DNA of 64,000 nucleotides from the NCBI RefSeq assembly GCF_963921235.1, contig NC_086097.1, positions 148,740,001-148,804,000 of the forward strand. The letters run 5' to 3'. This document shows, in pieces, positions 5,506 through 36,833 of the stretch; within the stretch, counting starts at the first letter, position 1; each line of letters begins with the position of its first letter. The position numbers and the translations under genes were made by a program. Under the pieces are notes generated by a model. The model was not told the origin of the DNA, ran no database searches, and saw nothing but the letters and a program-made list of their open reading frames with translations. Source of the DNA: Mobula hypostoma (Eukaryota).

Positions 5506-5619
5506 AGAACAGATAGCATTAGATCGGTAAGTGCTCAAGGTCGGAGGAAGACGAGTTTGCAAAACCACCACATCATAGCACCTGATTTCTCAGTCTATAA
5601 TATTATCATCCTGCTTTTT

Positions 5620-10624: not shown

Positions 10625-11446
10625 AACAAGTGCTACACATGCCCTTACACTTCCTCCCTTACCACCATTCAGGGCCCCAGACAGTTCTTCCAGGTGAGGC
10701 GAAACTTCACCTGTGAGTCGGCTGGGGTGATATACTGCGTCCGGTGCTCCCAATGTGGCCTTCTATATATTGGCGAGACCCGATGCAGACTGGGAGACCG
10801 CTTTGCTGAACACCTACGCTCTGTCCGCCAGAGAAAGCAGGATCTCCCAGTGGCCACACATTTTAATTCCACATCCCATTCCCATTCTGACATGTCTATC
10901 CACGGCCTCCTCTACTGTAAAGATGAGGCGACACTCAGGCTGGAGGAACAACACCTTATATTCTGTCTGGGTAGCCTCCAACCTGATGGCATGAACATCG
11001 ACTTACGCTAATGCCCCACCACCCCCTTGTACCCCATCCGTTATTTATTTTTATACACACATTCTTTCTCTCACTCTCATTTTTCTCCCTCTGTCCCTCT
11101 GACTATACCCCTTGCCCATCCTCTGGGTTCCCCCCCCCCAGCTTTTCTTTCTCCCTGGGCCTCCTGTCCCCCATGATCCTCTCATATCCCTTTTGCCAAT
11201 CACCTGTCCAGCTCTTGGCTCCATCCCTCCCCCTCCTGTCTTCTCCTATCATTTTGGATATCCCCCCCCCCCCCCCACCAACTTTCAAATCTCTTACTAA
11301 CTCGTCCATCAGTTAGTCCTGACGAAGGGTCTCGGCCTGAAACGTCGACTGTACCTCTTCCTAGAGATGCTGCCTGGCCTGCTGCATTCACCAGCAACTT
11401 TGATGTGTGTTGCTTGAATTTCCAGCATCTGCAGAATTCCTGTTGT
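10625..11446 (+). mobile_element. Penelope-like element (PLE), 5'-truncated: GIY-YIG endonuclease domain plus terminal module
   Basis: Translation FTCESAGVIYCVRCSQCGLLYIGETRCRLGDRFAEHL...PVATHFN...EEQHLIF..LQPDGMN is a PLE GIY-YIG domain; followed by a pyrimidine tract and the hammerhead-bearing end. Confidence 0.92.
11314..11351 (+). ncRNA. minimal type-I hammerhead ribozyme motif in PLE terminal repeat
   Basis: agtc-CTGACGA-a-gggt(ctcg)gcct-GAAA-cgTC-gact: stem I agtc/gact, intact catalytic core, 4-bp stem II, palindromic ACGT in place of stem III. Predicted cleavage after 11346. Confidence 0.8.
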
Positions 11447-11869
11447 AAATGAGAATTCTATCTATTTTCTCAATTTGCATTTGTTCTTTAAAAGTTGTCC
11501 CATTTAAGCTGCTGCCCTGATTAATCAGAATGCACTGCATTTACAATTTTTCCCTTAAAATTTCAATTTTCTTTATCTCAACCTTTCTGAGTCATGGAAG
11601 TTCATGTTCCTGCTAGCACTTGTTCAAAGACCATTAATAATCTTTCTTTCCTCTCTCAGTTAAGAACAATATTAAACTGGGATCACTTCCACACAAAGTT
11701 CTACATCAAAGAAAACTTTGTTTAACACCTTTCATTATTTCAGTGAATAAATACATCATGTCTAAACTATAAACTATAAAACCCAATCCCTATTACTAAC
11801 CTTTGAATCTATATTCTAATTTCTCTGGAGATTTCATGCCCTCCCTTAATGGAAGAGCCAAAATTACTG

Positions 11870-13592
11870 TACTGTACTGTAAATGACGTAACAACGTCAG
11901 AGCCAATGTTTTTGCATAAAATTAAAATTTTATAACTTTTTATGGATTTTTGGCGGCTGGTCATGAAAATCACCATGAAATTTCCCTACCATGCACCATT
12001 TTTTGAAATCGCCTATATTTATTATTTCAATTCATAATTCAAGTCAATTAAAATGTTTCCCACAGTGTAAGCTGAAAAGTTTCCTATCTTGCCCAAGCAT
12101 GCTTAGGCAGGGCAGATGCTGCATGGCAGGGCAGATTTTAGAAAAGCTATAAAAGCATCACACACATACCATGCTTTGTGTTGCGTTTATTATATATCGG
12201 TTTGCAATCATGTTGATGAGAATGCTCTACGCCTATAGCATATTGTGTGTACTCATTATAATAAAGTACTTGTATTTTCAGGAGTATTTGTGATAACAAA
12301 ATGTTTCACCAATTTTGCAAGAGACGCAATACTTTCTGTTAGATTCGTGGTGAGTATACGCTTATATCTCAAAGATGGAGCATGACTCTTCATTAAGAAA
12401 ACCTGTAAGCTCTACCTTGGGTGTAAAATTGGTGACTAAGACAAAGCCAGGGCTCTTCCCACTTGTTTCATAACATGCATTGTCAATCTTAGAGCTTGGC
12501 TCAGAAGTACTTGGAAGTGAATGTCGTTTACTGTCCTGGTGAGAGTAGAAGGATAATGTGACAGACAGCTACTTCTGTCTGACCAGTGCGTCTGGTTTCT
12601 CTGCTAAAAATAAGAAATTCATTCAGTCATGACACCTGAGCCACATGACGATCGTCTTCCAGTACAGAAGTCACCAGAGACATGGAGTCTACAGGAGGCA
12701 GACGAAAATGCACGAGCCAAGAATGGAAGATGACACAGATACTGATACAGATTTTGAACTCTTTATGTCAAGTGACCATCATCTGGTAACACAATCTGTG
12801 TTAAATGACCTGGTCAGAGACTTGGTTTTGTCAAAAGCAAAAGCAGAATTACTGGACACTTAAGCAAGACTGCAAGGACAGAATCTGCTGTCACCAGGCA
12901 CAAAAATTTCCATGAGGGATTTCAATATTTGAGACAGATGTTTCCCAGAGTAACTGAAGCCAAGATTAAGAAAGGCATTTTTGTTGGTCCACAAATCAAA
13001 TAGATCATTAATGTCAGGCTATTCGAAGAACTTCTAGTGGGACTGGAGAAAACCGCATGGAAGACATTTAAGGATGTGGTTGAAAATTTTCTTGGCAATT
13101 ACAGAGCGCCAAACCACACGCAGCTGGTTGACAATATGCTTCAAGCACACAAAACCATGAAGTATAACACGTCACTAAAGATTCATTTTCTGCGTTCCCA
13201 TTTAGACTTCTTCCCTGCAAATCTTGGCGCTGTCAATGACAAGCAAGGTGAAAGAGTTCACCAGAACATTGTGCTTGTGGAGAAATGGTATGAGGGCAAC
13301 TGAAATCCATCAATAATGGCTGATTATTGTTAGCTGCTTAAGCGAGAAGCCTCAGCCACCGAGTACAAATTAAAATCTCAATTTTCAGCTCAGTTGAACG
13401 ATTACAAAGTGTCAGCACCATTATGAAATTAAACACATTATATTCAATAAACATTAGTTTTTGTGTCTCCAAATTCCTACGTGACACAAGTAGTCTGAAA
13501 TTATATTTGTATTCAGCTTCAAGTGGTCTATCATAAACAAAAAAAAAATCTGAAGAAGCAACACCTTTGAAAAGTTTTTCTGTCCAATGTTA
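11870..13592 (+). mobile_element. Chapaev3-like (CMC superfamily) DNA transposon, decayed transposase with internal deletions
   Basis: Motifs FC*IRGEYTL, LGCKIGD*DK, YFCLT, LNDLVRDLVLSKAKAELL, GIFVGPQIK, AWKTFKDVVENFLGN, SLKIHFLRSHLDFFPANLGAVNDKQGERVHQ, MADYC* at ~12301-13375. Termini approximate. Confidence 0.7.
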
Positions 13593-13802
13593 TTATTGTT
13601 ACTCTTTTGTCATAGAGCCATATAGCACAGAAACAGTGCCTTTGGCCCAGTAAGTCTATGTAGAGCATCTAACATTTATTTGTATTAATTCTACACTAAT
13701 CACATTTCTATCCTTCCCACATTCTATCAACTTCCTCAGATTCTTAAACAGGACAATCAATTTACAGTGGCCAATGGATCTACAGCCCCACAACTTTAGA
13801 AT

Positions 13803-14912
13803 GAGAATCAGAATCAGCTTTATTATTACCAACATGTGTCGTGAAATTTGTTAACTTAGCAGCAGCAATTCAATGCAATACATAATGTAGAAGAAAAAAG
13901 TAAAAATAAATAAATAAGTGAATCAATTACAGTTTACGTATATTGAATAGATTAAAAATCATGCAAAAAAAACAGGAATATATATTAAATAAAGTGAGGT
14001 AGTGTTTACGGGTTCAATGTCCTGAATTGCTGAGTGTGTGCCTTCAGGCTTCTGTACCTCCTACCTGATGGTAACAGTGAGAAAAGGGCATGCCCTGGGT
14101 GCTGAAGGTCCTTAATAATGGATGCTGCCTTTCTCAGACACAGCTCCTTGAAGATGTCTTGGGTACTTGGCTAGTATCCAAGATGGAACCAACTAAATTT
14201 ACAACCCTCTGCAGCTTCTTTTGGTCCTGTGCAGTAGCCCCCACCCCCCCCATACCAGACAGTGATGCAGCCTGTCAGAATGCTCTCCACAGTACATCTA
14301 TAGATGTTTTTGAGTGTATTTGTTGGCATACCAAATCTCTTCAAACTCCGCACACTGAGTGTAAGGTTGTCGTTGTGTCACCACTCCATTAGTTGGTATA
14401 TCTCGCTCCTATACGCCCTCTCATCTCCATCTGAGATTCTACCAACAATTGCTGTATCATCAGCAAATTTATAGATGGTATTTGAGCTATGCCTGGCCAC
14501 ACAGTCATGGGTAAAGAGAGTAGAGCAGTGGGCTAAGCACACACACCCTGAGGTGTACCAGTGTTAATCGTCAGCGAGGGGGAGATATTATCACCAATCC
14601 GCACAGATTATGGTCTTCCGGTTAGGAAGTCGAGGATCCAATTGCAGAGGGAGCTACAGAGGCCCAGATTCTGTAACTTCTCAATCAGGATTGTGGGAAT
14701 GATGGTGTTAAATGCTGAGCTGTAGTCAATGAACAGCATCCTAACATAGGTGTTTGTATTGTCCGGGTGTTCTACGGCCGTGTGAAGAGCCATTGAGATT
14801 GCATCTGCCATTGACCTATTGTGGCAATAGACAAATTAAAGTGGGTCCAGGTCCTTGCTGAGGCAGGAGTTCAGTCTAGTCATGACCAGCCTCTCAAAGC
14901 ATTTCATCACTG
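13803..14912 (-). mobile_element. Rex1/Babar-type LINE, 3' portion
   Basis: Translation MKCFERLV...[13 protein letters not shown]...[12 protein letters not shown]...[29 protein letters not shown]; (ctgatt)n tail at 13804-13817. Confidence 0.88.
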
Positions 14913-14915
14913 TAA

Positions 14916-15005
14916 GATTTGGATGGAAACTAGAGCAGCTGGAGAAAACCCACATGGTTACATGAAGAATGTGTAAACCCCAGTCAGAACTGGAGGCCAG
15001 GACTG
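14916..15005 (-). mobile_element. V-SINE (HE1-like) core fragment
   Basis: Reverse complement 'gtgggttttctccagctgctctagtttccatcc' resembles the V-domain core GGGTTTCCTCCGGGTGCTCCGGTTTCCTCCC. Confidence 0.6.
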
Positions 15006-15019
15006 TGATCCTGATCACA

Positions 15020-15485
15020 ATCTCTTTGTGATTTTTATATTGACTTGGATGAAGAAGTGGAAGGTTGGGTTAGTAAGCTTGCAGATGACACAAAGTGGCT
15101 CACATTGTAAGATCGAATTTGAAGGCAGAAAATAGAGTTAATGCAGGATTCTCAGCTGTGTGGATGAACAGAGGCATCTTGGGAACCACGTCCATAGATC
15201 TCTCAATTGCCGCACAAGTTGATAGCGCTGTTAAGAAGGCATATGATGTGTTGGCCTTCATTAGTCAAGGAATTGAGCTGAAGAGCTGTGAGGTAATGTG
15301 GCAGCTCTATGAAACACTGGCTTAGACCATAATTGGAATATTGTGCTCAGTTCTGGTTACCCCATTAGAGGAATGATGTGGAAGCTTTAGAAAGGGGGCA
15401 GAGGAGATTTACCAGATTGATCTTATATTTTAAAAGGTCAACACAACATTGTGGGGCAAAGAGCCTATACTGTGCTGCAATGTTT
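15020..15485 (+). mobile_element. CR1 LINE fragment with internal deletions
   Basis: Translation DLDEEVEGWVSKLADDTK, VKKAYDVLAFISQGIE, LEYCAQFW. Confidence 0.8.
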
Positions 15486-15980
15486 TATCCTGGGTCCCTG
15501 CAGTTATGAAGTAGTTATGTTTGCTCCTCTGATAGTTATGTGCTCCTCTGGCAGCACAGCTAGTGTATGTCACCAATTTACAAAATGCAGAATGAAATTT
15601 GCTTTCATATTGGGAAAAGTAGTGAATCTAATCAGGAAAATGAGTGAATCAGCAGAATAGTTGTTTCATTTTCATTTGCATTTTAGCAATCACTAAAATT
15701 AAGTGCTCAACCTGCCTGGCTCTGAATACTCACATAACATCCAGCAAAAGTTATCAAATTCTTTTTCCACACAGAATATTTTTAATGGAATTATTTTTTG
15801 TAATGATTTTCTTGGCCTCAACTTGGCATCGATCACATGATTGAATGCACTGGAGACAGCTTTAATGCTTAATGATGATCAAAAATGGACAAAATAAAAT
15901 TATCTGGCTATTACTTACCACACCTGATTCTCTTTTCCATGATGTTATTGGGAAGGAAAATGAGGCAGGATGTATATTGT

Positions 15981-16110
15981 CAACACAAGAAAGTCAGTAG
16001 ATGCTGGACATCCAAAGCAATGCACACAAAATCCTGGGGGAACTAAGCAGTATCTATGAAAATAAATGAACAGTTGTTATTTCAGGCTGAAATTCTTCTT
16101 CAGGGCTGGA
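15981..16110 (-). mobile_element. PLE terminal module, degenerate
   Basis: 'aacacaagaaagtcagtagatgctgg...' matches the reverse of the PLE 3' module. Confidence 0.65.
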
Positions 16111-16752
16111 AAAAGTATAGTGGTTACTACACCTGGTCCAGTGATAGACTTATAATCAACATGAGAACCTATTAAGTCATTTCAAGGCATAATTGTATAT
16201 TTGAAAAACTGGGTCCTCGAACAAGAAATTCAACAGAGATTTTTCAACAGAATTAAGAGAGAATTCAAAAGAATAAACAAAGAATTCAGCAGAATAAACC
16301 CAAAACTGAGGCTGCAGAATTAATACATGGCACCAATAGCTCTTTGAAGCTTTGAGTTAATCTTTATATATGTCAATTGAATTCCTTTACATCATCCAGT
16401 TGAATAAGTTGGACTGATCCAATATTCACAAATATAGTTAACTGCTACTGTCCAGAAGTCAAATGTAAAGGAAAACAACTAATAACTGAGGAAGAGATTT
16501 AGAGAAATGTGTAATGTTGTCAAAAAGAAAGTTCTGTGGTGAATGGGATATCTGTTAATAGTTATGAAAAAGTAAGTAATTTTTGGGAACAAGGAACAAT
16601 TGAATGAACAATACACAGTTGTATGAAGGGTTGTGTTTTGTTTTCCTATGTTAAATATGATATAGATGTGCAAATTGTATCATATTTCTATTGGTAAGAA
16701 TGGAAACAATACTGTACTTTCTATATAATTAACAAAAAGGGAATGATTTTAC

Positions 16753-16886
16753 AAACCCAAGAGATTCTGCAGATGCTGGGAATCCAGAGCAACACGTACA
16801 AATTACAGGAGGAACTTAGCAGTCAGGCATCATCTATGGGAATGAATAAACAGTCGATGTTTTGGGTCAAGACCCTTCATCAGGAC
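16753..16886 (-). mobile_element. PLE terminal module beginning at a hammerhead motif (core GAAA mutated to AAAA)
   Basis: Minus strand reads gtc-CTGATGA-a-gggtcttgaccc-aAAA-catc-gactg followed by the PLE tail. Confidence 0.75.
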
Positions 16887-17329
16887 GTTACAAATTACAA
16901 AAGAGTTTATAAATTATTAAGAATGAAAACATGTGCCAATATGCTGAACTTCACATGATAGGCTTTCTCATCCCATCCATCATTGTACTGAGAATGATCA
17001 GCACCAAAGTTAACCAAAGCAGGTTAGTCATAACTTTTGTCATGTGTGACAATAATGCTGCACCATGGTTCACATAATGTTAATGAACCACAAGAATTAA
17101 TTCCATAATTAACAGAACTAAGAAAACTGAGTCCAAATCATCATAAGAGAGAGAGAAAATGCAGCTCTAATTGGCAAAGCAACACTGAATCATTAACTAT
17201 ATTAAAATTACTAAATTGGATAGAGCCAACTATTTTAGTTTCCTGACTGTAGCTAGTTCTGCAGGCAAAATGTTTTTAATTACTATTTTAGATTTCACTC
17301 ATGACTTGATTTTCTTTTCATAATGGGGA

Positions 17330-17620
17330 TCAAGTACCACTCTGGAAACTTTGGCACAATATTTCTACTCCCAATTAGTACAAAGAGAATGTGGCATTGT
17401 CAGAGGAGATATAAAACCAAAGCCCCATCTGCTCTCTTATGCAAGTATAGACTAACCATTGGCACAGTTTTGAAGATTTAAGTCCCGTACCTTGGCCAGT
17501 ATTTGTTCCTCAACCAACAGCATAAAAGAATTACCTAGCCATGATCATACAGCTATTTGTGGGAGCTTGCTATGCATAAACGGTCTCGTTTTTCCTATGT
17601 TAGAATTGTGATCGACTCGG
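17330..17620 (+). mobile_element. old DeuSINE (SacSINE1/AmnSINE1-related) fragment
   Basis: 'ttgtcagagg...aaaccaaagccccatctgctctct...ttggccagtatttgttcctcaaccaaca...tttgtgggagcttgctatgcataaa' follows the Deu-domain/SacSINE1 consensus as I recall it. Confidence 0.65.
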
Positions 17621-18119
17621 GTGTTCTAAAAAGAAAAACCAGTCCACCATGTAAGTGCAAGCATTTCTTTTTGTACCTAAACTCCAGATGCATCTTATGG
17701 TTAATGAGCTAACAGATAAAGTGGTCCTAGATAAACCTGAATTTGTAAACTTAACAGGGAAAATAGTCTGTACTACGTTCACTGGGAATGTTGTAACTGT
17801 GACTAACTAGCTTGGAGACTAAATCTGACAAGCTATCATCCTGGAGGAGACGTTCTCAGTAGAATTTCCCCGAACTCAAAGAACATCTGTTTTTTATGTT
17901 CTTAAGAACAAAAGCAGTAGCTGATTCAATACAATTTCAATAGTTACAGTGATGTTGTATATTTCAATGTATTACATTTAGCAAAAACTAACATTGAATT
18001 TGATATTTACCATGGGAGCATACTGTAACTGACATGACACTGCTGAATGTTCAAATGCCTTTAATGGTACGAATTAATTCATATGGGTGATCTAAGAGCT
18101 TCTGAGGAATACCCAAATA

Positions 18120-19540
18120 ATTAATTGCATGAGTATTAACTCCCTTTAATATGACACACTAAATCATCACTGGTGCAGCTAATTGGTTTTCGAAGTCACA
18201 TAATTAGTTAAATGGAGATCTGTTTTTGGAGATCTGTGTGCATGAAGTAAAAATACACTTATATCTGGAAGGTCCAACTTCAGGTGAGTCACTATCCTGG
18301 CAAAAGCTACATCATGAAAACAAAAGAACCTCCAAGCAACTCTGCAAAAAACTTATTGAAAAGCACAAGTCAGAAGATGGATACAAGCAAATTTCCAAGT
18401 GACTGAATATCTCTTGGAGTACTGTTAAGTCAATTATCTAGAAATGGAAAGAATATGTAAATCTCCCTAGAGCAGGCTATCCTCAAAAACTGAGTGACCA
18501 TACAAGAACGGGACTAGTGAGGGAGGCCACCAAGCCACCTACAACAATTCTGGATTACTTACAAGCTTCAGTGGCCTGGATGGGAGCGACTGCGCATTCA
18601 ACATCTGTTGCCCATGTGCTTTACCAGTCACAGCTTTATGGGAGATTGGCAAAGAGAAAGCCACTGTTGAAAAAAACTCACATGAAATCTTGGCTTGAGT
18701 TTGCTAGAAGGCATGTGGGAGACTTGGAAATCAGCTGGAAGCAGTTCTACGGTCTGATGAAAGCAAAATTGAGCTTTTTGGCCATCAGACTAAACGCTAT
18801 GCTTGGTGTAAGCCAAACACTGCACATCATCAGAAATACACCATTTCTACAGTGAAGCACAGCAGTGGATGCATCATGCTGTGGGGACACTTCACTGCAG
18901 CAGGTTCTGGAAGAGTTGTGAAGGTAGAGGGTAAAATGAATGCAACAAAATACAGGGGAATCCTGGAGGAAAACCTGATGCAGTCTGCAAGAGAACTGCA
19001 ACTTGGGAGAAGATTTGTCTTCCAGCAAGACAATGACCCCAAGCATAATGCCAAAGCTACACAGGAATGGCTTAAAAACAGCAAAATTAATGTCCTGGAC
19101 TAGCCAAATCAAAGTCCAGACCTCGATCTGATTGAGAATTTGAGGCTGAACTTGAAAAGGGCTGTTCACTTACGATCCCCATGCACTCTGACAAAGTTTG
19201 AGGTGTTTTGTAAAGAAGAATGGGGAAAAATTGCAGTATCCAGATGTGCAAAGCTGATAGAGACCTAGCCACACAGACTCAAGGCTGTAATTGCTGCCAA
19301 AAGTGAATCTACTAAATACTGACTTGAAGGGGGTGAATACTTATTCAGTTAATAATTTTGTGCTTTATATATGCAATTAATTTGGATCACTTCACTGTAG
19401 AAATCTTCACTGACACAAAAGAGTCTTTTTCTGTTGACCAGTGTCAAAAAAAGCCAAAGTAAATCCACTGTGATTCAATGTTATAAACTAATAACACTTG
19501 AAAACTTCCAAGGGAGGGTGAATATTTTATATATGCACTG
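18120..19540 (+). mobile_element. Tc1-family DNA transposon (IR/DR type), left end partly lost
   Basis: Right end ...gggtgaatattttatatatgcactg|TA with an inner repeat gggggtgaatacttat (~19329-19344); inverse inner repeat at ~18125-18147. Confidence 0.85.
18314..19322 (+). pseudogene. Tc1 DDE transposase pseudogene
   Basis: ATG at 18314 to TGA at 19322 with stops and frameshifts; motifs LYGRLAKRKPLLKKTH, TVKHSSGCIMLWGHF, FQQDNDPKH, *PNQSPDLDLIENL, STKY*. Confidence 0.88.
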
Positions 19541-21018
19541 TATTCCAATTATTGATAGCATTATTGACCAAATCAAATGCCTATGGTTTGATGCGTTGTA
19601 TTGCAATCTTCCTCGATCGCAATCACAATGATACAAAATATCTTATGGTATCTAATGCTCGGTTTAATGTAGGCCAATTAATATACTGCATTGTCTTTGG
19701 GAATGTCTCATGGTCTTGTTGGTTTGGAAACGATATCTCCATCTAGCCTGTGTTCTTTAAAGAGTGCTCTTTGTTTACAAAGCTATGCTTTTAATATCAA
19801 ACTGATTACTGCCTGTGAATTAAAAAAGAACTGAAGACTCATTCGTGTTTGAATTAATGGCTATTACATTCACATAATTCCAATACTCCTAAATCCCAAA
19901 CAGGGAGTAAGTAATGATGTACATAAATTGTGGAACCTCAATTCATTATATTTAATGTATATTTAACGTTACCTTTTTCTTTAATTAAAAAATTTAACTA
20001 TAATTCCCTTTTCCTCTCATTTTTGTTTTTGCTCTTACATGTATGATATAAGAGGCCTCCTTATGTGCCTTACTGCTCCGTGGTGTGATTCCTCACTGTT
20101 CTGACATAGTGTGCGTTCCATTAAACATCTTCTGGTTTCAGCCAGGGCAGCAGTTAAAACACTACAATGAGATTTGGCTGGAGAAATCATCATAAGAATA
20201 TTTGAGCTGGAGAAAACATCATAAGAATATTTTATGTGTATTGTAAAAAAAAGAAAAAAAAGTGGCAACTTTCTACGTATTATCCAAATATCAAAGATGT
20301 CATCAAATAAGGAATATAGCATGGTATGATATAGAAATTGGATCAGACTTAAACATTTTTGGGGAATTACACAGTTCAATTTTAAGAATCCAGTATTGAT
20401 CGCACAGGAATCGTTTTTTGGTGAACTTGCACAAGCTGCAAAATTGGTTAAAGGCACTTTTATGTGGATTCATATTAGCTTGCCCAACAATTTTGCAGTG
20501 TCAAGTGTGCACTAACTGACATTATTAATCATGTAATAATCAGATCCAAAAGAAATTGGATCAGAAGCTGCAAGCAACAACTGCTATGGAACAGTATCAA
20601 TAGGAGCAGATAGTGCTGTTTTTTCACTCTTTAAAGAGACATTCTACACTCAAGAAGCCTGGCGGGGCAACTTTATAAGTAACCGCAGGCTGCACAAATA
20701 CTTTCCAAAATCCACAGAGTGCGCTACAACAAATTGTGAGTGTTTATTTCCAGCATTTAGCTTCTGAGATACTTACTCAATGGATTCTTCAGTAATGGTT
20801 TCACTGTTGGTGTTGCTATGGTCATATCTGACCAGTCAGGACAAGGGCTACAGAGCAGGAAGTTATGACATGCCCATCGGCAAAGAGCCTACTTCCATGA
20901 AGTCTTCATAAACAATATACCCATCTTGAAGATCTACCACACAACCTTAATAGATGGAGGAACACACACAAAATGCTGGTGGAACACAGCAGGCAGGCAG
21001 CATCTATAGGAAGAAGTA

Positions 21019-21052
21019 CAGTCGACGTTTCGGACAGCCTTCATCAGGACTA
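21019..21052 (-). ncRNA. minimal hammerhead motif (shortened stem II)
   Basis: Minus strand agtc-CTGATGA-a-ggctgtcc-GAAA-cgTC-gact; core intact, stem II reduced by deletion. Confidence 0.6.
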
Positions 21053-21652
21053 ACTGAAAGAAGAGAGAGTAAGAGATTTGAAAGTGGGAGGGGGAGGGGG
21101 AGATCCGAAATGATAGGAGAAGACAGGAGGGGAGGGATGAAGCTAAAAGCTGGAAAGTCGATTGGCAAAAGGGATACAGAGCTGGAGAAGGGAGAGGATC
21201 ACGGGACGGGAGGCCTGGGGAGAAAGAAAGGGGGAGGAAAGCGCCAGAGGAAGATGGAGAGCAGGCAAGGAGTAATTGTGAGAGGGACAGAGAGAGAAAA
21301 AAAAGGAAAGAAGGAAGGAAGGAATAAATAAATAAATAACAGATGGGGTACAGGGGGTGGGGGGGAAGGTGGGGCATTAGTGGAAGTTTGAGAAACCAAT
21401 GTTCAGGCCATCAGGTTGGAGGCTACCCAGACGGAATATAAGGTGTTGTTCCTCCAACCTGAGTGTGGCTTCATCTTGACAGTAGAGGAGGCCATGGATT
21501 GACATATCAGAATGGGAATGGGACGTGGAATTAAAATGTGTGGCCACTGGGAGGTCCTGATTTCTCTGGCGGACAGAGCGTAGGTGTTCAGCGAAAGTGG
21601 GAGGGATAGTCCCCCTCCCACTTTCAAATATCTTACTATATCTTCTTTCAGT

Positions 21653-21690
21653 TAGTCCTGACGAAGCGTCTCGGCCAGAAACATCGACTG
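21653..21690 (+). ncRNA. minimal hammerhead motif, degenerate stem II
   Basis: agtc-CTGACGA-a-gcgtctcggcca-GAAA-caTC-gact. Confidence 0.55.
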
Positions 21691-22384
21691 TACTTCTTCC
21701 TATAGATGCTGCCTGGCCTGCTGCGTTCACCAGCATTTTGTGTGTGTTGCTTGAACTTCCAGCACCTGCAGATTTCCTCGTGTTTGCGTTAATAGACAGA
21801 GGTCCCAGATGATTGGAGACCAAGCTCTGCTGCACAGGCTCAGGATACACACATACACACAGGCAGAAAAAACTATGCGCACTATAAGCACATACAGACA
21901 CATTCTGAACATGATCAAGAAATGGGCACAAGCACAAGATTCCTCAGACTTACTCCTTTCTCTTCAGACTTATCCAAACCTTCTGTTTCCTTGCCTCAGT
22001 TCCCTGCTCCTAACTCAATCCCTCAGTCTTTCCTTCCTGCTTCTGCCAGTCTCCAACTCTCTGTCAATTCCTTCTATATAACTCGGTCCTCTTTCACACC
22101 ACTCACCCTCCCGCGTGCCCCTCAGTAGTCTCTTCCCACTCTCCAGCTCCTTGCTCTATTCCAGCATGGTGTTGCACACAGCTGTTCCTGCTGACCCTCT
22201 AGGGCACTTCCCAATTGCCAATTATCTGCCTCACCCAGTTACCCAGCAACTAGATCTCCTAAACTTCCCCATAAAGCTCTGGAGAATCCTTAGTCTCCAG
22301 ATGATGCCATCCAGGTTTCTGATATCAGTTGGCCATAGTTCTCTGCTCTGGGGTGGGGTAGATATGACTTCAAACAAAGCCCTA

Positions 22385-22870
22385 AAGAGAGGATCCAGAG
22401 AAGATTCAAAGAATGCTCCCAGAATGAAAGGCTTAGTACATGAGAAGCATTTGATAGCTCAAGGCCCTGTGTTTGATTGAATTCAGAAAAGATTGTTTGG
22501 AAGGGGAGGGGGATCTCATTGAAATCTACCGGATACTGAAAGACCCAGGAAGAGAATGTGTCAATTAGTAGGACAGACGAGGATTTGAGGATTCAGAATA
22601 AAGGGATATCCCTTTAAATCTGAGGTAACTGAGACATAGAGGAATTTCTTCTGCCAGAAGCTATCAATTCTGTTGAACTTGTTGTCACAACGAGCAGTGG
22701 AACCAAGTCATTAAGATTTGAGATCAGAATTGATAGGTTCTTGATTGGTAAAGGAGTTGAGGATTACAGGGACAAAGCAGGAAAATGGGTCTGAAAAAAG
22801 AGCCTAGATTGAAAGGCAGAGCAGGTTTGATGGACTGAATGGCCTAATTCTGCCCCAGTACCTTAAGGTG
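22385..22870 (+). mobile_element. CR1 LINE 3' fragment, old
   Basis: 'gaggatccagagaagattca...ggaatttcttc...ggactgaatggcctaattctgc' CR1 3' features. Confidence 0.75.
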
Positions 22871-23204
22871 TAATGAAAGCTGACTCACCATACAGGAGAA
22901 GAAGCGTCCCTCTTTCCATCATGATAACTCTTCATATTTGCTGGCCGAGCTACCCATTCAGTGGGGACCACTATGGCAGCATCCCATTATCAAGACTTCA
23001 GGAAAAGTATGGTAGGCCACTTAGGGAAGGTTCATGGCCTCAGGAAGGAGATATAGACATTTCTACCTGAAAATAACCTGTACCCAAAAATACTGTAGCA
23101 GTAATGCACGGTACCTGAACCCTTCTACTGAACAAAGAATACATAATTCAGGTTTTCAAACTCAGCAAAAATAGAAACATTTGAAATATGTGCCTGTTCT
23201 GGCT

Positions 23205-23365
23205 TCTTTCCCTGTCATTCCCTGTCCTGATGAAGGGTCTCATTTCAAAACATTGAACGTATATTCCTCTCCATCGATGCTGCCTGACCTGCTAAATTCC
23301 TCCTGCATTTTCTGTGTGTTACTCTGGATTTCCAGCATCTGCAGAATCTCTTGTATTTTTGACAT
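23205..23365 (+). mobile_element. PLE terminal module, degenerate hammerhead
   Basis: gtcctgatgaagggtctc...gatgctgcctgacctgct...tccagcatctgcagaatctcttgt. Confidence 0.75.
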
Positions 23366-24116
23366 ATGTAATCTTGCAGTGTGATCTTATTTTTGTGTTT
23401 GCACTGCTCTTTCTGTGAAGTCAAAGTTGACAGTGACTTTCAACTTTTTGGCCTATAAATCATTCTAAGCAGTCACATCAGATCCATGCCACAATTCTCA
23501 AATTGCTGCTGGTCAGAAAGGTCATTAAAGCTCTCTGTTCACAAAGTAAACAATTCACCTTGTTTGACTTCAATGGAAAAACCTTGCATATCAAGTAGTG
23601 AATCTGTCAGCATTGTTGGATTCCCATAAATGCACACAGCTATCAGCTATACTTATATTATCTTAACAATCCATTTAATGACCAGAGTTTTTTGATAATG
23701 AGTATTTATTGACAGTGATCGCCCGGATTTCTACTAGTTCCTACAGTATCTGAAGAAGGACACTTTCAGCTGTCAGCACAGCCCTTTGGGATAAAGGAAC
23801 CTAATAGGTCAATAGTTGCTCATTCCAGTGCACATTTCATTTCTACCAGCTCAGTTATAAACAGTGAGTCACATAAGTAACAGGATTCAGAATACCATAG
23901 GTCTGCTCAAAACCTTATTCCAGTGCTTTAGAGGTTCCCTGCATTATATGTTAAGCAGGTTTGGAGACTTCTTTGTAATATCTTTCATGCTGCGTAACCT
24001 GGCTAATTTAGAGAAAAAGGCAGCCTGGGTGACAGGAAGCACAGCAAAGAGACTTTGTGTGCAAGGATCAAAAGCAGATCCTGAACAGCAAGAAGAGCAA
24101 AGAGAGCAGGGGGTCA

Positions 24117-24184
24117 ATGAAAGCTACAAAGGGGAATCTCAAACCTACCGCAGCAGCTAAGCAGAGAGCGCGGGCATTATTCAA
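24117..24184 (+). other. speculative first coding exon (MKATKGNLKPTAAAKQRARALF, phase-2 donor)
   Basis: ATG at 24117 is open to a strong donor AA|GTAAGC at 24185, within a TE-free island with local CpGs; no homology recognised. Confidence 0.2.
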
Positions 24185-26647: not shown

Positions 26648-27279
26648 GAACCAGCAGTGATTCCTGCAGCACTCCAATAGTCACTGGCCTCCAATCAGGG
26701 AGGCAACAATTTAGTACCACTCTCTGGCTTCTCCCACAAAGCCAATGTCTAAACTAATTCTCTACCTTATCTTGAACGCCAAGTGACTGAACCTTCTTAA
26801 CCAACCTCCCAGGTGGACCATATCAAATACTTTCCTCAAGTCCTTGTAGACAACATCTACTACCTTGCCTTAACTAACTTTCCTGATAACCTCTTCTAAA
26901 AACTCTATAAGGTTGGTTAGACATAAAACCATGCTGACTACCCATAAACAAGCTCACCAGCCTCTAATTTCCTGGTTTAGTGTTAAAGCCTTACTCCAAT
27001 CCTCCAGTATCTCTGTTAGGGCCCCTCCAATTTCTGCACTTGCCTCCCACAGGGTCTGAGGAAACACCTTATCAGGCCCTGAGGATTTACCTACTTTAAT
27101 ATACCTCAACACAGCAAACACACCTTGCTCAGTAATCTGTATAAGGTCCATGACGTCCATGACCTCCCTGCTTCTTTACCTCACTTCTATAGGCTATGCG
27201 TCCATCTCCCAAGTAAATACAGATGCAAAAAATCCACTTAAGGTCTCCCTCATCTCTTTTGTCTCTCACATAGATTACC

Positions 27280-28294: not shown

Positions 28295-30226
28295 CCCTAC
28301 ACAAACTTCTGTCACCTGCTCTGTCTCAATCCCTAATAAGAGATCAAGTATCACACACCGTCAGTGGGACTTTTATGTACTGATTAAGGAAATGTTCCTG
28401 AACACATTTCACAAACTCTTTCCCACCTGCTCCTTTGAGAGTATGGGAGTGCAAGTCAATATTTGGAAAATTAAATCTCCTACTATAACAACCTTATGTT
28501 TCTTGCAACAGTCTGTGACCTCTCTCCAGATTTGTTCCTCTAAATTGCGCAAACTTTGGGTATTCTGAAATATAGCCCTGTTAACATGGCTATACATTTC
28601 TTATTCCTCAGTTCCACCCATAAAATCTCTCTAGATGAGTTCTCCAGTCTGTCCTGACTGAGCACTGTGGTGACTTTTTCCCTGCCTAGTAATAGTACCC
28701 CTTCCCCTTTAATCCCTCCAGCTTTGTCGTATCTAAAACAACAGTACCCTGGAATATTGAGCTCCTAGTCCTGCCCCTCCTGTAGCCAAGTCTCACTAAT
28801 GGATACAATATCATAATTCCATGTGTTGATCCATGCCCTGAGCTCGTCTGCCTTTCATACGATACTTCTTACATTGAAATGTACGCAGCTCAGGACATTA
28901 GTTGCACTATTCTCAACCCTTTTGATTCCTGACTTTGTCTGAAGTCTTAACAACATCTGCCTCTGTAACCGCTCCACTATCTGTTCTGGTAGTCTGGTTC
29001 CTATCCTTCTGCAACTCTAGTTAAACTCCCCTGCCCCCAGCCCCATGCAGCCCTAGCAAACCTTTCCCACTAGGATATTAGTCCCCCTCCAGTTCAAGTG
29101 CAAACTGTCTCTTCTGTACAGGTCCCACCTTCCCTGGAGAAGAGCCCAATGATCCAAAAAACTGACGCCCTCCCTCCTACAACAAGTCCTTAGTCATGTG
29201 TTAAACTGCATGATCTTCCTATTTCTGGCCTGACTAGCACATGGCATGGGTAGCAACCCTGAGATCACAACCCCGGATGTCCTGTACTTTACTTAGCACC
29301 TTATTACTCACTGTGCAGAACCTCAGCTCTCTTCCTTGCTATGTCATTGGTACCTACAGTACATGGACCACGACCTCTTACTGCTCACCTTCCCAATTAA
29401 GAATGCTGAGGACTTGATCCAAGATGTTCCAGACACTGGCACCAAGAAAGCAATATACCATCCAGGAATCTCATTCTCATCCACAGACTTCCTTCTGTTC
29501 CCCTATCACCACAGCTCACCTCCTCTCCCTACCGTTTGATTCAGAGTTCATCCAGTTCCAGCTACAACTCTTTATTGCGAAGTGTTAGAAGCTGAAACTG
29601 GATGCATCTCTTGCAGGTGAAGTTGGTAGAGAGACTGGAAGTCTCCCTGCTTTCCCACATCCCTCAAGAGGAGCATTCAACTATCCTGCCTGGCATCCTT
29701 ACTGTTAGATCTGTGCAAATATAAAGAAGGAAGCACTAAATAAACTGGGGGAAAAAAATCTACCTACAGCTTTTTCACCTTCTCTCATTTAATCCTCTCC
29801 TCGCTGAAGCCTCAAAGAGCTAAAGCCTCAAATAACCACTCTAACACTGTCCACTCCAACAAAATCTGCTCCAAGAATTGTCACTCTGCTTATTTTTATT
29901 TGTTTTTGCCATTCAATCCTGATCGCTGATTGGCTGCTGTTCAAAAACCAAACTGCTGCGAATTTATGCTCACGGCGCTCAATCGGCAAAAACAAATGAA
30001 CTACGTGTTGTCACGCTTCTAATCACTAATCGGCTTTGAACATCAAAACATGGAGGCACCTTCACAAACTCCACAGCCCCCAGTGACACTGTGATTTCAG
30101 TCTCTGGGGCCAATGAGAAAATTTTTCAGGAGGGTGAACTCACAGAAAGCATCTGGTTCAGATCAGATAGCTGGCTAAGTACTAAAGACCTGTGCTGATC
30201 AACAGGCTGGAGTGTTCACCAGTATC

Positions 30227-31323
30227 TTTCTTAATGGTACTTACGTGCAGGACCCAGCACAGGTCCTCTGAAATGCTAACTCTGAGGAATTTAAAGTTAC
30301 TGACCCTCTCCACCTCTGATCTCCTAGTGAGGACTGACTACACTGACCTCCAGTTTCCTCTTCCTGAAATCAATAATCAGTGCCTGGTCTTGCTGACATT
30401 GAATGAGAGGCTAACAACAGGAATTCTGCGGAGGCTGTTGTTGTGGCATCACTCAGCCCGATTTTCAATCTCCCTCCTATATATCGATTCATCACCACCT
30501 TTGATTCACCAGCACCTTTCACTTCAGCAGTCTGAGATACCCACCTGCTTCAACTGTACCGGTGCCTAAGAAGAACATGGTGACCTGCCTCAATGACTAT
30601 CGTCCAGTAGCACTTACATCCACTGTGATGAAGTGCTTTGACAGGTTAATGATGAAACATAACAATTCCTGTGACTTGGATCTACTATCATTTGCCTCCT
30701 GTCACAACAGGTCAACACATCTGGACAGTGAATACATCAAGATGCTATTCATTGACAGCAGCTCGGCATTCAGTACAATGATGCCCTCAAAACAAATCAA
30801 TAAGCTTCAAGACCTTAGCTTCAATACCTCCTTGTGCAACTGGATCATCAATCTCCTCAATTACAGACCCCTATCAGTTCAGATTGGCAACAACATCTCC
30901 TCCACAGTCTCCATCAGAACAGATGCTCAATAAGCCTGTGTGCTTAATCCCTTATTCTACTCGCTTTATACTTCTAACTGTTAGCATAAGCACAGTTCCA
31001 ATCCCATATTTTAGTTTACTGGCAACACCACTGCTGTTGGCCAAATCAAAGGTGGTGATGAATCGATATATAGGAGGGAGATTGAAAATCGGGCTGAGTG
31101 ATGCCACAACAACAGCCTCCGCAGAATTCCTGTTGTTAGCCTCTCATTCAATGTCAGCAAGACCAGGCGCTGATTATTGATTTCAGGAAGAGGAAACTGG
31201 AGGTCAGTGTAGTCAGTCCTCACTAGGAGATCAGAGGTGGAGAGGGTCAGTAACTTTAAATTCCTCAGAGTTAGCATTTCAGAGGACCTGTGCTGGGTCC
31301 TGCACGTAAGTACCATTAAGAAA
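30227..31323. repeat. 280-bp near-perfect inverted duplication (arms 30227-30506 and 31044-31323; 537-bp spacer)
   Basis: Arms are reverse complements with one difference seen (C/R in the matching ORF translations 30192+ and 31011-). Confidence 0.92.
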
Positions 31324-31778
31324 AAAGCATGGTGGTGCCTCTACTTCCTCAGATGTTTGCGAAGATTTGGCATGTTATGTAAAATTTTGACAAACTTATA
31401 TAGATGTGTGGTGGAGAGTATATTGATTGGTTGTTTCATGGCCTGGTATGGAAATGTCAATGTCTTTGAATAGAAAAGCCACAAAAAGTCCAGTCTTCCC
31501 ACCTTCTTATAGCTCAGTCCATCACAGGTAAAGTCCTCTCCACTATTGAGCACATCTACATTGAGAGCCGTTGCAAGATAGTAGCATCCATCATCAAGGA
31601 CCCCATAATTTCTTCTTGCTGCTGCCATGAGGAAGAAAGTACGGGAGCCTCAGGACCCACACCACCAGGTCAGTTATCACCCCTCAGGCGTCAGGCTCTC
31701 GAACCAGTGGGGATAACTTTACTCAACTTTACCCACCCCATCACTGAACTGTTCCCACAATCTATGGACTCACCTTCA

Positions 31779-31873
31779 ATGTCCTGCCAAAGGGATTCAC
31801 CCAAAGCATTGACTATACTTTTTTTCCATAGATGCTGCCTGTCCTGCTGAGTTCCTCCAGCATTTTGTATGTG
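31779..31873 (+). mobile_element. PLE terminal module inserted in a Rex1 3' UTR
   Basis: Degenerate hammerhead start 'gtcctgccaaaggg' plus gatgctgcctgtcctgctgagttcctccagc; flanked by ~13-bp imperfect TSD gactcaccttcaa/gactctctttcaa. Confidence 0.7.
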
Positions 31874-32457
31874 TGACTCTCTTTCAAGGACTCTTTATCT
31901 CACGTTCTCAATACTTATTGTTCATGTATTTATTTATTATTACTATTCCTGTTTTTTTTCTTTATGTATTTGCACAGTTTGTTGTCTTCTGCACATTGGT
32001 TGTTTATCCATCCTGTTGGGTGCAGTCTTTCATAGATTCTTGCCTTCAAGAAAATGAATCTCAAGGTCGTATGTGCTGACATATATGTACTTTGACAATA
32101 AATTTACTTCAAACTTTGAAGTCAATGAAGTCCACAGTGATTGACAATGGGAAATCTTTCAGTGAGCTCTATGAGAAGCTCTTTTTAAGCCACTCTTTCA
32201 ATTGGTCATTTCAAGCTACAGAATTGTGAAAAATAATGAAGTCTCAGCAGCTTAAATAGAAGCAGTGGAAGTACCTGTTTAACTCAACTCACAATCTGAT
32301 CACTATGATGTCTTAGTTTCCTGTGTATTCACTCTTGAAAAGCACTCTTTGATCTAAGCCTACTAATTTCAAACCTGTGAATAAAAGAGGGTCCCTAGAA
32401 AATGGATATTTCATCTCAACATGCTCCATTAAAGTCAATGCTAAGTTTATTGACATA

Positions 32458-32955
32458 CGAGGGGTGATTGATAAGTTCGTGGCCTAGGGTAGAAGGAGTC
32501 AATTTTAGAAAACCTAGCACATTTATTTTTCAACATAGTCCCCCCTACATGTACACACTTAGTCCAGCGGTCGTGGAGCATACGGATCCCTTCTTTGTAG
32601 AAGTCGGCGTCTTGGACCTCCAGAAGTGGTCCACAGCAGGGGTGATTGATAAGTTCGTGGCCTAAGGTAGAAGGAGATGAGTTATTAACTTCAAACTTTC
32701 TGCATTTTCACTCAAAGAGTTGAACTACACATGCATGTAACGGGAGCTGCATAACTCATCTCCTCCTACCTTAGGCCACGAACTTATCAATCACCCCTGC
32801 TGTGGACCACTTCTACAAAGAAGGGATCCGTATGCTCCATGACCGCTGGATTACGTGTGTACATGTAGGGGGGACTATGTTGAAAAATAAATGTGCTAGG
32901 TTTTCTAAAATTGACTCCTTCTTCCTTAGGCCACGAACTTATCAATCACCCCTCA
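32458..32955. mobile_element. mariner-derived palindromic MITE with nested internal TIRs
   Basis: TA|cgaggggtgattgataagttcgtggcct ... aggccacgaacttatcaatcacccctca|TA; arms encode a mariner transposase C-terminus (FYKEGIRMLHDRW..CV); second TIR pair at ~32639-32670 and ~32765-32797. Confidence 0.9.
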
Positions 32956-33062
32956 TATTTACAATTACATGTATGTACAGGTGCAATGTAACATTTGCAG
33001 CAGCATCACAGCCTTCCAGCGTCATAAAAGCAGCATCCGTAAGAAAAGTATAAATTGTACAT

Positions 33063-33692
33063 AAACACAAGTGATTCTGAAGATGCTGGAAATCTAAATA
33101 AACACAGACAAAATGCTGGAGGGAGGGGAATAAGCAGTTGACATTTCCGACCAAGATCCTTCGTCAGGACTGGAATGGAAGGAGGAACAAGCAAGAATAA
33201 GAAGGTGGGACGAGGGGAAGGAGTACAAGCTGACCGGTGATAGGTGAAACCAGGTGATAGGGAAGGTAGGTGGGTGGGGGAGAGGGGATGAAGTGGGGAT
33301 TTGGGAAGTGATAGGTGAAAAATGTAAAGGGCTAACGCAGAAAGAAGCTGCTCAGAGAGGAGAGTGGACCATGGGAGAAAGGGAAGAAGGGGGATCACGA
33401 GAGTGAGGTGATGGGCAGTTGAGGGGAAGAGAGGAGCTAGAATGAAGAATAGAAAAAGAGAGGAGGGGAAGGGGGAGAAGTTATCGGCAATTAGAGAAAT
33501 CAACGTTCATACCACCAGGTTGAAGGCTACACAGGTGGAATATGAAGTGTTGCTTCTTCAGCCTAAGAGTGGCTTTATCATGGCAGAAGAGGAGGCCATG
33601 AACCAATTTGCCTGAATGGGAATGGAAAGTAGAATTTAAATGGGTGGCCACTCAGAAAACTTGCCCTTTGTGTCAGGCAGAGCAAAGGTTCT
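33063..33692 (-). mobile_element. PLE 3' fragment (older subfamily) with degenerate hammerhead at 33136-33171
   Basis: Homologous to 10800-11446; minus strand agtc-CTGACGA-aggatcttggtcg-GAAA-tgTC-aact. Confidence 0.8.
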
Positions 33693-34124
33693 CGACTGCC
33701 ACGACGAGACTTTTAAGGTCCTCCCGCCTCCTTAGAATTGGCTCTAAGTACAGTCTGAGTTGGACACTGTTCACAATGAAGAGGCGTGTGAGTGGGTGCA
33801 TGTCTCTCTGCTTGCAAACGAGAGATTACTTCACATATGCTAAATTACATAAATAGGTGAGGAATGTGCTCATATCTGGCGTCTCTCTGCTCATGTGCAG
33901 CATCCTTCCCTCTGTCTGGGGAAGGCAGTTAGCTGCTCACATCCAGAATCACTCTGATCCTGCAGAACCATAAGCAGCTCAAAGATTATCTCCCTGTGTT
34001 CACACTGACCCAAACAATATGCTCACAGGTGGCAAAGATGTTAAATTACTCCTTGGTAGCAGAGCTGCTCATGTGTTTCAGAGACACTAAACACTGAACT
34101 GGATTAAGGATACGGCTAGTAAGA

Positions 34125-35300
34125 AACAGTCAACGGTGGTGACGAATCAGCATATAGAAGAGAGATTGAAAAACTGGCTGAATGGTGCCACAACAACTCT
34201 CACTCAACATCAGCAAAATCAAAGAGATGATTATTGATTAAAAGAGGAGGGAACCAGAGGTCAATGAGCCAGTCCCCATTAGAGGGTCAGAGGTGGAGAG
34301 GGTCAGTAACTTTAAATTCCTTGGCATTATAATTTCAGAGGATTTGACATGGGTCCAGCACATAAAGGCCATTACAAAGAAGTAGGTGCCTCTACTTCCT
34401 TAGAAGTTTGCAAAGATTCAGCATGTCATCTTAAACTTTGACAAACCTCTGTAGATGCCCAATGGAGAGTATACTAACTAGATGCATCATGGCCTGGTAT
34501 GGAAACACCAACACCCTTGAGTGGAAAAGCCGACACAAAGTAGTGGATATAGGTCAGTCCATCACAGGTAAAGTGCTCCACACCATTGAGCACATCCAGA
34601 AGGAGCACTGTTGCGGGAGAACAGCATCCATCATCAAGGACCTCACCACTCAGGCCATACTGGCTTCTTCCTGCTGCCATCAGGAAGGAGGTAAAGGACC
34701 CTTCGGTCCCACTCAGCAGATTCAGGAAGTTATTACTCCTCAGTCATCAGGCTTCTGAACCAGATTGGACAACTTAACTCACCCCAACACTGAAATGATT
34801 CCTATGGACTCACTTTCAAGGAACTCTGCAACTCATGTTCTCAATATTAGTTAGTTATGCATCTATCTATCTATTTATTTATTTATATCTATCATTATTT
34901 TGTTTTTTTTTTCTTTTCTTGTATTTATGCAATTTGCTGTCTTTTGCATGTTGGTTGTTGGTATGTCTTTGCATGCAGTTTTCGTTGATCCTATTATGTT
35001 TCTTTGTACTTATTGTAAATGCCTGCAAGAAAGTTGGTATATAGTGACATATGTACTTTGATAATAAAAACAACAGGAATTCTGCAGATGCTGGAAATTC
35101 AAGCAACACACATCAAAGTTGCTGGTGAACGCAGCAGGCCAGGCAGCATCTGTAGGAAGAGGTGCAGTCGATGTTTCAGGCCGAGACCTGAAACGTCGAC
35201 TGCACCTCTTCCTACAGATGCTGCCTGGCCTGCTGCGTTCACCAGCAACTTTGATGTGTGTTACTTTGATAATAACTTTGCTTTCACCTTTTGAACTTTG
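34125..35300 (+). mobile_element. Rex1/Babar-type LINE 3' portion
   Basis: Translation VERVSNFKFLGI, ESILTRCIMAWYGN, ASIIKD; tail ...tttgaactttga. Confidence 0.85.
35068..35261. mobile_element. fold-back (palindromic) PLE mini-insertion
   Basis: Two inverted PLE terminal modules with ~75-bp paired arms, centred on hammerhead stem II; 14-bp TSD tactttgataataa (35054-35067, 35262-35275). Confidence 0.9.
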
Positions 35301-36431
35301 AAAAACAAGGCTTCGGCAAGGAGAGGCTTCAGTGAGAGAAGGAAAAGAAGCTGTAGGTAGAACTCCTCCCCCCACCCCCACTTATTGTTCTTCCTTCTTT
35401 ATATTCGCTCAGTCAGAATAGTAGAGAGGCCAGGCTGGATAGCAGAATGTTCCTTTTGCAAGATGTGGGAAGGCAAGGAGACCTCCGGTGCCCCTGACAA
35501 CTATACCTGCAAGAAGAGTGCATCTAACTGCAACTTCTAACACTCTGCATTAAGGAATCGGAACTGGAACTGGATGAACTCTGCATCATCTGGGAGGCTG
35601 AGGGGGAAATTGATAGGACATATAGAGAGATAGTTACACCCAAGGTGGAAAATGGGTGACGGTCAGGAAGGGGAAGGGGTTAAACAGCCAGTGCAGAGTA
35701 CCCCTGTGGATATCCCTCTCAACAACAGGTACACCACTGTGGATACTCCGGAGGAAGTGGGGAGAAGAAGTGAGCTGTGGTAATAGGAGAATTGTTAGTT
35801 AGGGAACAGAAAGGAGGTTTTGTGGATGAGAATGAGATTCCCCAGCATTCTTAAATGAGAGGGTGAACAGCCAGAAGTTGTGATCCCTGTAGGTACCAAT
35901 GAAATAGGAAGGAAGAGTGGCGAGGTTCTGCAAAATGAGTTCAGGGAGTTAGGGGCTAAGTTAAAGGACAGGACCTTCAGGAATGTGATCTCAGGATTGC
36001 TATCCATGCCATGTGCTAGTAAGACAAGAAGTAGGAAGATTATACAGTTTAACACATGGCTAAGGAGTTGGTATCAGAAGGAGGGCAAAGGATTTTTGGA
36101 TATTTGAACTCTCTTTCAGAGAAGGTGGAACCTGTGCAGAAGAGACAGTTTGCATCTGAACCAGAGGGGGAATAATATCCTAGCAGGATGGTTTGCTAGT
36201 GCTTTTCGGTGGGATTTAAACTGGAGTTGCATGAGGATGGGAACCAGAGTGCCAGGACAGTTAGTAGAGAAGTTGTGGAGACAAATGTTGTTAAGACCTC
36301 AGACAAAGTCAGGAATCAAAATTCAGCATGGTGCAACTAGTGTCCTGAGCTGTGTATATTTCAATGCAAGAAGTATCGTGGGAAAGGCAGACGAGTTCAG
36401 GGCATGGATCAACACATGGAATTATGATATT

Positions 36432-36833
36432 CTCTAACTTCCGCTAGGCCCCACCTCCCCCTCGTACCCCAGCTGTTACTCATTTTTATGCACACATTCT
36501 TTCTCTCACTCTCCTTTTTCTCCCTCTGTCCCTCTGAATATACCTCTTGCCCATCCTCTGGGTCACCCGCCCCCCCCCCCCGTCTTTCTTCCCGGACCTC
36601 CTGTCCCATGATCCTCTCGTATCCCCTTTTGCCTATCACCTGTCCAGCTCTCGGCTCTATCCCTCCCCCTCCTGTCTTCTCCTATCATTTTGCATCTTCC
36701 CCTCCCCCTCCAGCTTTCAAATCCCTTACTCACTCTTCCTTCAGTTAGTCCTGACGAAGGGTCTCGGCCTGAAACGTCGACTGCGCCTCTTCCTATAGAT
36801 GCTGCTTGGCCTGCTGCGTTCACCAGCAACTTT
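36432..36833 (+). mobile_element. PLE 3' fragment inserted in CR1 endonuclease region
   Basis: Closely matches 11005-11402; perfect 13-bp TSD gaattatgatatt (36419-36431, 36834-36846). Confidence 0.9.
36746..36783 (+). ncRNA. minimal type-I hammerhead ribozyme motif
   Basis: agtc-CTGACGA-a-gggt(ctcg)gcct-GAAA-cgTC-gact, identical to the motif at 11314-11351. Confidence 0.8.

Follow-up and report, generated by a model that had tools for sequence, protein, structure and literature searches.

Minimal hammerhead motifs scattered through a Mobula hypostoma genomic window probably derive from a Neptune-like Penelope element and act, if at all, on the element's own RNA

We analyzed a stretch of 64,000 nucleotides (nt) of the Mobula hypostoma genome (assembly GCF_963921235.1, contig NC_086097.1, positions 148,740,001 to 148,804,000, forward strand), called the window below, in which an earlier note had described many minimal hammerhead ribozyme motifs spread by the ends of Penelope-like elements. 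We conclude, with a probability of roughly three in four, that these are the hammerheads of the terminal repeats of Neptune-like Penelope elements, that they were scattered by 5'-truncated insertions, and that they act only on the element's own RNA, the copies being inert. A further proposition, read from junction sequences, stands in our judgment at even odds: the genome may record the ribozyme at work, in that a hammerhead at the capped 5' end would sometimes cut and the telomerase-related reverse transcriptase (RT) would recopy, per insertion, the ~62-nt segment from cut to tail. Throughout, position 0 is the first base 3' of the predicted cut, with negative numbers upstream and positive numbers downstream.

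The window's two intact copies lie 25 kb apart, at 11314-11351 and 36746-36783, and their claimed identity was confirmed at 38/38 nt. The motif proper occupies 11315..11350 (+), with the predicted cut at 11346/11347, and 36747..36782 (+), within a shorter copy at 36430-36835. It reads in hammerhead order: stem I AGUC/GACU, CUGACGA, one extra A, a stem II of 4 base pairs (bp), GAAA, and CGUC. The core elements CUGANGA, GAAA, and UH are thus present in type I order, and folding of the isolated motif predicted stem pair probabilities of 0.65-0.95. Helix III is absent, and an ACGU palindrome stands at 15.2-16.2; its C-G is kept in 42 of 53 young copies, with CpG decay in the remainder. Because the motif has no helix III, an Rfam scan of the window found, as expected, no hammerhead and only microRNA-like matches on fold-backs. 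A profile built from natural copies detected 19 terminal modules in the window and 0 in reversed controls, in agreement with the about 18 counted earlier. Only 2 of the 19 passed a structure descriptor.

By sequence, the motif belongs to the published minimal hammerheads of Penelope-like elements (PMC4209133). Shared with them are the type I core, the short helix I, the extra base between 9 and 10.1, the palindromic 15.1-16.1 replacing helix III, the presence of the motif in both terminal repeats, and a distribution of mostly solo copies with some close opposite-strand pairs. In contrast to those families (PMC4209133), where the G10.1-C11.1 pair is conserved, stem II is only 4 bp here, mostly with G-U at 10.1-11.1, and shows low variability and no subfamily covariation. 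That paper describes monomers as inactive and dimers as weak, counts compensatory changes among families as a supporting trait, and names no cartilaginous fish in its main-text portions. The Penelope origin and the minimal type I architecture with ACGU in place of helix III, as first proposed for this window, are both supported.

The carrier appears from its sequence to be a Neptune-like Penelope element. A GIY-YIG endonuclease end immediately precedes 11315 in a 5'-truncated copy at 10625..11446 (+), which runs from a cysteine linker and the GIY-YIG end (frame 10619-11011) through a pyrimidine-rich 3' untranslated region and the hammerhead to a long tail. A search with this end led to long frames elsewhere in the genome. 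RT and, at the C terminus, GIY-YIG lie in one frame of 921 amino acids (aa) at locus L057 and of 946 aa at locus L059; the RVT_1 and GIY-YIG matches in these frames score below gathering thresholds, and the frames have Atlas clusters at 0.98. L059 is a full element, with motifs at 6724 and 3210, 3,514 bp apart, flanking the RT and GIY-YIG frame; its 3' motif copy has G8 changed to A. Between RT and endonuclease, L059 has the linker CX4CX2C, and a CX2-5CxxC linker marks Neptune or Nematis elements (PMC8557442). We use the Neptune label because of this linker and because Neptune has been reported in vertebrates. The linker also separates the carrier from PAc of Anolis, which is a Poseidon element (PMC11167929). 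As a separate observation, a proline- and serine-rich segment lies before the RT (L059:5979-5400 and L057:3713-4300) and is duplicated as a 213-bp repeat in L057.

The shapes of the insertions fit this assignment. Of our young copies (n=119), sampled blocks supplied 52 and the window 7, and 60 were picked by tail pattern. Their 3' ends cluster near +66 (69/119) and near +97 (46/119), and inverted pairs join one short and one long arm in 41 of 42 cases, a count in which overlapping loci may contribute duplicates. PAc likewise has two reverse-transcription starts 3' of the hammerhead that define an optional tail, defined biochemically there (PMC11167929). Partial tandems, an inverted 5' copy, and an optional 30-40-nt tail are all present among the sampled copies. 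Endonuclease-positive (EN+) Penelope-like insertions have 5' truncation, partial tandems, an adjacent inverted copy, a 30-40-bp tail on one arm, and target duplications of 8-10 bp or longer; junction clustering within the ribozyme and repeats starting at the cut, as found here, are not described in the available text of those reports (PMC8557442, PMC3846280).

The motif is very abundant. The 28-nt core has 55,586 exact occurrences in the 3.48-Gb genome (control, 0), compared with about 4,000 motifs in coelacanth and 9,000 in Xenopus (PMC4209133). We also sampled 128 blocks at round offsets (1.28 Mb), 8 of them adjoining the window. The profile found 265 modules there (207 per Mb) and none in reversed sequence, and 880 kb contained 22 matches to the structure descriptor, against 0 in the three shuffled controls and the reversed one. 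Scaled up to the whole genome, these counts would amount to about 87,000 motifs that pass the descriptor and about 700,000 modules. Given the genome-wide and block counts, the window is therefore ordinary for this genome, and the earlier suggestion that, at typical density, the motif would be very numerous is supported.

We then consider where copies begin. Of the 119 young copies, 47 begin at -45..-10, roughly tenfold the rate at other positions. The start lies no more than 3 nt from the cut in 1, which puts the upper bound at 4.6 percent, and only 5/119 ordinary copies start at -5 or later. The 5'-end hazard per 100 nt is 1.47 at -45..-10, 0.31 at -80..-46, and 0.12-0.17 in six of the seven other bins. 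Since starts pile up 10 to 45 nt upstream with almost none at the cut, reverse transcription usually crosses the scissile bond, and the motif likely lies at the 5' end of an RNA that is mostly copied uncut. Uncut RNA is also the main template of PAc (PMC11167929). Among solo short copies, 17/31 start at -36..-29, mostly at -36, -33, -32, and -31; many are flanked by 9-15-bp target duplications, and a G foreign to the element stands at the junction in 10/17 (p 0.01). The sequence TCAGTT at -38..-33 ends a pyrimidine tract in the manner of a splice acceptor, and we take it to resemble an initiator as well.

We folded 45 of 54 copies, scoring those in which both stems formed with p > 0.5. Both stems were predicted in 37/45 copies when the RNA started at -33, in 3/45 when it started at -45, and in 0-1/45 with 60-200 nt of upstream sequence. 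With shuffled upstream sequence the stems were predicted in 3/45, and with host upstream sequence in 2/7. Folding is thus predicted to succeed mainly for RNA starting at -36..-33. With transcription starting at about -36 to -31, as we infer, the ribozyme would lie at the RNA 5' end, and folding is predicted in no other setting.

Instead of a transcript start, the pile-up at -45..-10 might mark a stall caused by structure, or a splice acceptor made up of the pyrimidine tract and a CAG whose end is at -35. We consider this unlikely, though the strongest of the alternatives. It would agree with an intron in Drosophila virilis that ends at helix I (PMC4209133), with inverted arms that spread over -39..-11, and with the recurrence of the pile-up on a second pass. 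However, what precedes the solo short copies is host target duplications and not a shared exon, those starting at -36 keep the AG, and, in contigs, 0 of the 15 joints listed (there are 203 more) is a splice into the site. Aligned to L059 and to window positions 5000-24000, the contigs of 22 sequencing runs gave no ends, strand, or joints to host exons among the matches listed.

The second class of junctions consists of restarts, in which a tail is followed directly by a new start. We classified restart loci by eye from the listed matches. The restart is exactly at 0 in 8/28 loci after a short tail (2 ambiguous) and in 3/12 after a long tail (2 ambiguous), or 11/40 head-to-tail loci overall (p 1e-6 against 1 in 22). 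At 7 of 8 clear short-tail loci, 0/25 pieces start upstream of -5 and 11 start at 0, although pieces within one insertion are not independent. Both arms start at 0 at L287. L282 and L283 have three restarts each, in 61-64-nt units, and are bounded by target duplications that measure 12 bp and 10 bp, respectively. Microhomology is missing from most G|G and A|G restart junctions. Such events are rare: loci of this kind number in the tens, copies in the tens of thousands. These junctions are likely the footprint of occasional cleavage of the element's own RNA, and the simplest reading would be a template pre-cut at 0 and copied repeatedly, via jumps to about +60 or round a small circle. Literature searches turned up no report of junctions at the cut site or of repeated units within Penelope insertions, which does not establish that none has been published.

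Taken together, these observations suggest the following cycle. The element protein would bind the tail, initiate reverse transcription at +66 or +97, and assist cleavage, by analogy with the anole element. Short copies and fold-backs would arise when the enzyme runs off an uncut 5' end. Only in a small minority of RNAs would cutting by the ribozyme take place, removing the first 31-36 nt; on such cut RNA the enzyme would run off at 0 and re-initiate near +60 to +63, giving the 61-64-nt repeats. If this is true, the junctions would be evidence that, in vivo, a minimal Penelope hammerhead cleaves and a Penelope enzyme carries out reiterative synthesis, and the uncut run-off copies would act like strong-stop DNA that rebuilds terminal repeats. 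In-cell cutting by minimal Penelope hammerheads has no in-vivo evidence in the available text of PMC4209133, and PAc is cut only with protein and shows no RNA ends at the cut in that of PMC11167929, whereas the genomic junctions here suggest some cut templates. Tens of thousands of young copies would form a genomic record of template ends, from whose junctions rare cleavage and the transcript start could be read.

Several results weigh against this account. After target duplications are discounted, the extra-G signal drops to 6/13 (p 0.15). Among 26 scorable copies that include the 5' region, 15 run on upstream beyond the motif for >60 nt and 4 have their start at -32..-21, a pattern that needs a template jump, circle, or read-through. 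A pile-up of solo or inverted copies at the cut was not found: junction matches numbered 387, and among the first 100 no more than 6 lie there, most of them one microhomology fold-back. The restart search required intact sequence at 0 and hence is blind to starts at +1 and beyond. Four restart loci are ambiguous, two L282 pieces can also be read as starting at -4 and -5, and L289 differs in having an intact motif beside the restart, plus filler. The predicted best fold of the monomer is an inactive rod, with the core paired to the cut site, 4 kcal/mol below the open core. The 10.1-11.1 pair is G-U in both window copies, and U occupies 11.1 in 91/130 copies of the young subfamily. We also rejected a designed upstream anti-ribozyme switch: shuffled upstream sequence suppresses almost as well (3/45), and suppression is therefore not a specific switch.

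It is accordingly worth weighing whether the motif never cleaves in this lineage and persists because it binds protein, acts as a promoter, or causes pausing, with restarts at 0 caused by stalling at the end of stem I or at the GTCGAC palindrome. We regard this as doubtful. Weak stem II with its G-U closing pair, the inactive best fold, the lack of read ends at the cut in the available data on the anole (PMC11167929), and the success of Naiad elements that have no motif (PMC8557442) would all suit it. So would the stems, where we found no subfamily-level double change among 153 copies of this genome. At the eight stem positions the commonest pair is the same across subfamilies, save for a one-sided G-C/G-U change at which older copies most often have G-C (45/100). 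Three tail-defined clusters have the same stems and the full core, and there is therefore conservation but no covariation. The covariation of stems I and II to which the earlier note had looked thus fails in this genome, and the motif is nonetheless conserved across subfamilies with differing flanks. A metagenome scan for related elements of other species gave 50 pattern matches, 0 confirmed. Core position 6 is C instead of A in 26/100 older copies and is linked to a shorter spacer (12/17 short-spacer copies versus 14/83, p 2.5e-5); in other hammerheads this change shifts dependence from Mg to Mn and cripples Mg-dependent cleavage (PMC7151607). On the other side, ordinary copies rarely stall at 0 (1/119), yet 7/8 restart insertions hold nothing upstream of -5, most restart junctions are free of microhomology, and the full core is kept in three subfamilies.

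The scattered copies themselves are probably not working ribozymes. Lacking helix III, the motif requires a partner or a protein. Divergence is 17/1046 in the core (1.6 percent) and 110/4717 in the flank (2.3 percent; p 0.20). Catalytically dead G8A copies number 1,607 genome-wide, compared with 2,468 and 2,280 at two comparison CpG sites (0.65-0.70), a mild deficit, for which sequence context or selection acting on source elements might account. Selection protecting G8 in the copies was set aside: an initial 1/110 copies shrank to a 0.65-0.70-fold effect in the genome-wide counts. None of 24 intact motifs in the 1.28 Mb has a same-strand neighbor in its 10-kb block, and the five neighbors present are on the opposite strand; among the first 100 cores listed, no two on one strand lie closer than 1.67 kb. 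An intermolecular ACGU duplex is predicted at -1.7 kcal/mol, whereas a duplex that competes with it by covering the cut site is predicted at -10.3. No tandem array of complete hammerheads was found in the window or in the 1.28 Mb, and the arrays found begin either at the cut or within the core and lack a complete catalytic core. The motif load may thus be tolerated, with embedded solo copies unlikely to fold or pair.

Within the window and the 1.28 Mb sampled, this is not a retrozyme by the tandem-unit definition. Non-long-terminal-repeat (non-LTR) retrozymes derive from Penelope terminal repeats and are reported in one cartilaginous fish (bioRxiv 10.64898/2026.07.22.740005; PMC7229834). They consist of two or more consecutive tandem units, every one bearing a complete hammerhead (bioRxiv 10.64898/2026.07.22.740005), whereas the arrays here hold none. 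One array elsewhere, at G000:C9:50880936-50881114, has 124-bp tandem units starting at -27 inside the core, with retrozyme-like spacing and no complete hammerhead.

The least probable account, that the dispersed copies are latent ribozymes cleaving host pre-mRNAs or delimiting retrozyme-like circular RNAs often enough to matter, we hold to be very improbable: it can draw on the extrapolated number of descriptor-passing motifs, on a G8-to-A change somewhat rarer than two CpG changes, on one of nine Xenopus dimers that cleaved well (bioRxiv 10.64898/2026.07.22.740005), and on an element protein that could act in trans, but the copies are solo or inverted and decay about neutrally, 24/24 motifs have no same-strand partner in their block, the ACGU duplex is far weaker than its competitor, embedded motifs are predicted to be unfolded, and no tandem array bearing the motif occurs in the window. 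The earlier note, which had made this suggestion, identified the kind of motif correctly and overreached on host effects.

The other copies in the window are damaged or partial. Four variants that the note had listed do exist, and each is impaired in core or stem. The motif at 21020..21051 (-) has lost 4 nt from stem II; its copy extends over about 20958-21600. At 21654..21689 (+), stem II contains mismatches and G16.2 is changed to A; the surrounding copy occupies 21612-21791. An older-subfamily motif at 16852..16886 (-), in the module 16758-16887, has core G12 changed to A, and another older motif at 33136..33171 (-), in the module 33066-33174, keeps its core letters but is mismatched at 10.1-11.1 and has one pair of stem I disrupted. 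All six traces previously described as decayed are among the 19 modules, and that label fits five of them. By the profile these are 15984..16110 (-), 23222..23354 (+), 31780..31883 (+; in the group with C at core position 6), and 37720..37817 (-), together with 44048..44183 (-), which has a GIY-YIG remnant upstream (44436-44757). The sixth, at 39379..39504 (+), is a young short copy truncated within the catalytic core. The profile also detected a tail-only remnant at 5901..5994 (+) and a decayed module at 47828..47941 (-), neither of which had been listed, and, as a weak match (E 0.0009), a short tail scrap at 37225..37256 (-).

Two fold-back pairs were likewise missing from the earlier list. 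The two-armed insertion at 35070..35266 is joined inside stem II, with arms that start at -19 and -11 and end at +97 and +68; it contains no complete hammerhead and is predicted to form a perfect hairpin. The second, at 47565..47751, has arms that start at -15 and -13 and end at +67 and +97. Across the genome, an exact pattern matched 1,533 tight fold-back insertions whose joint lies within the ribozyme. If transcribed, fold-back insertions would give long perfect hairpins and are possible sources of double-stranded RNA.

Several unrelated features complete the window. A near-intact L1-like long interspersed nuclear element (LINE) lies at 48430-53600 (+), with a first frame of 339 aa (Transposase_22, weak) and a second frame comprising a 1,095-aa endonuclease and RT, then one stop and 168 further codons. 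At 18442-19103 (+) there is a remnant of a DDE transposase in two frames (DDE_3, E 0.00015), presumably Tc1/mariner-like. A 141-aa frame at 42076-42501 (-) has no Pfam match, and we take it to resemble the restriction-like endonuclease end of a non-LTR retrotransposon. Finally, in LINE remnants, 30227-30506 and 31044-31323 are inverted duplicates of 280 bp with 100% identity, each arm containing a 17-nt scrap of the Penelope tail end; it is either a recent rearrangement or an assembly artefact.

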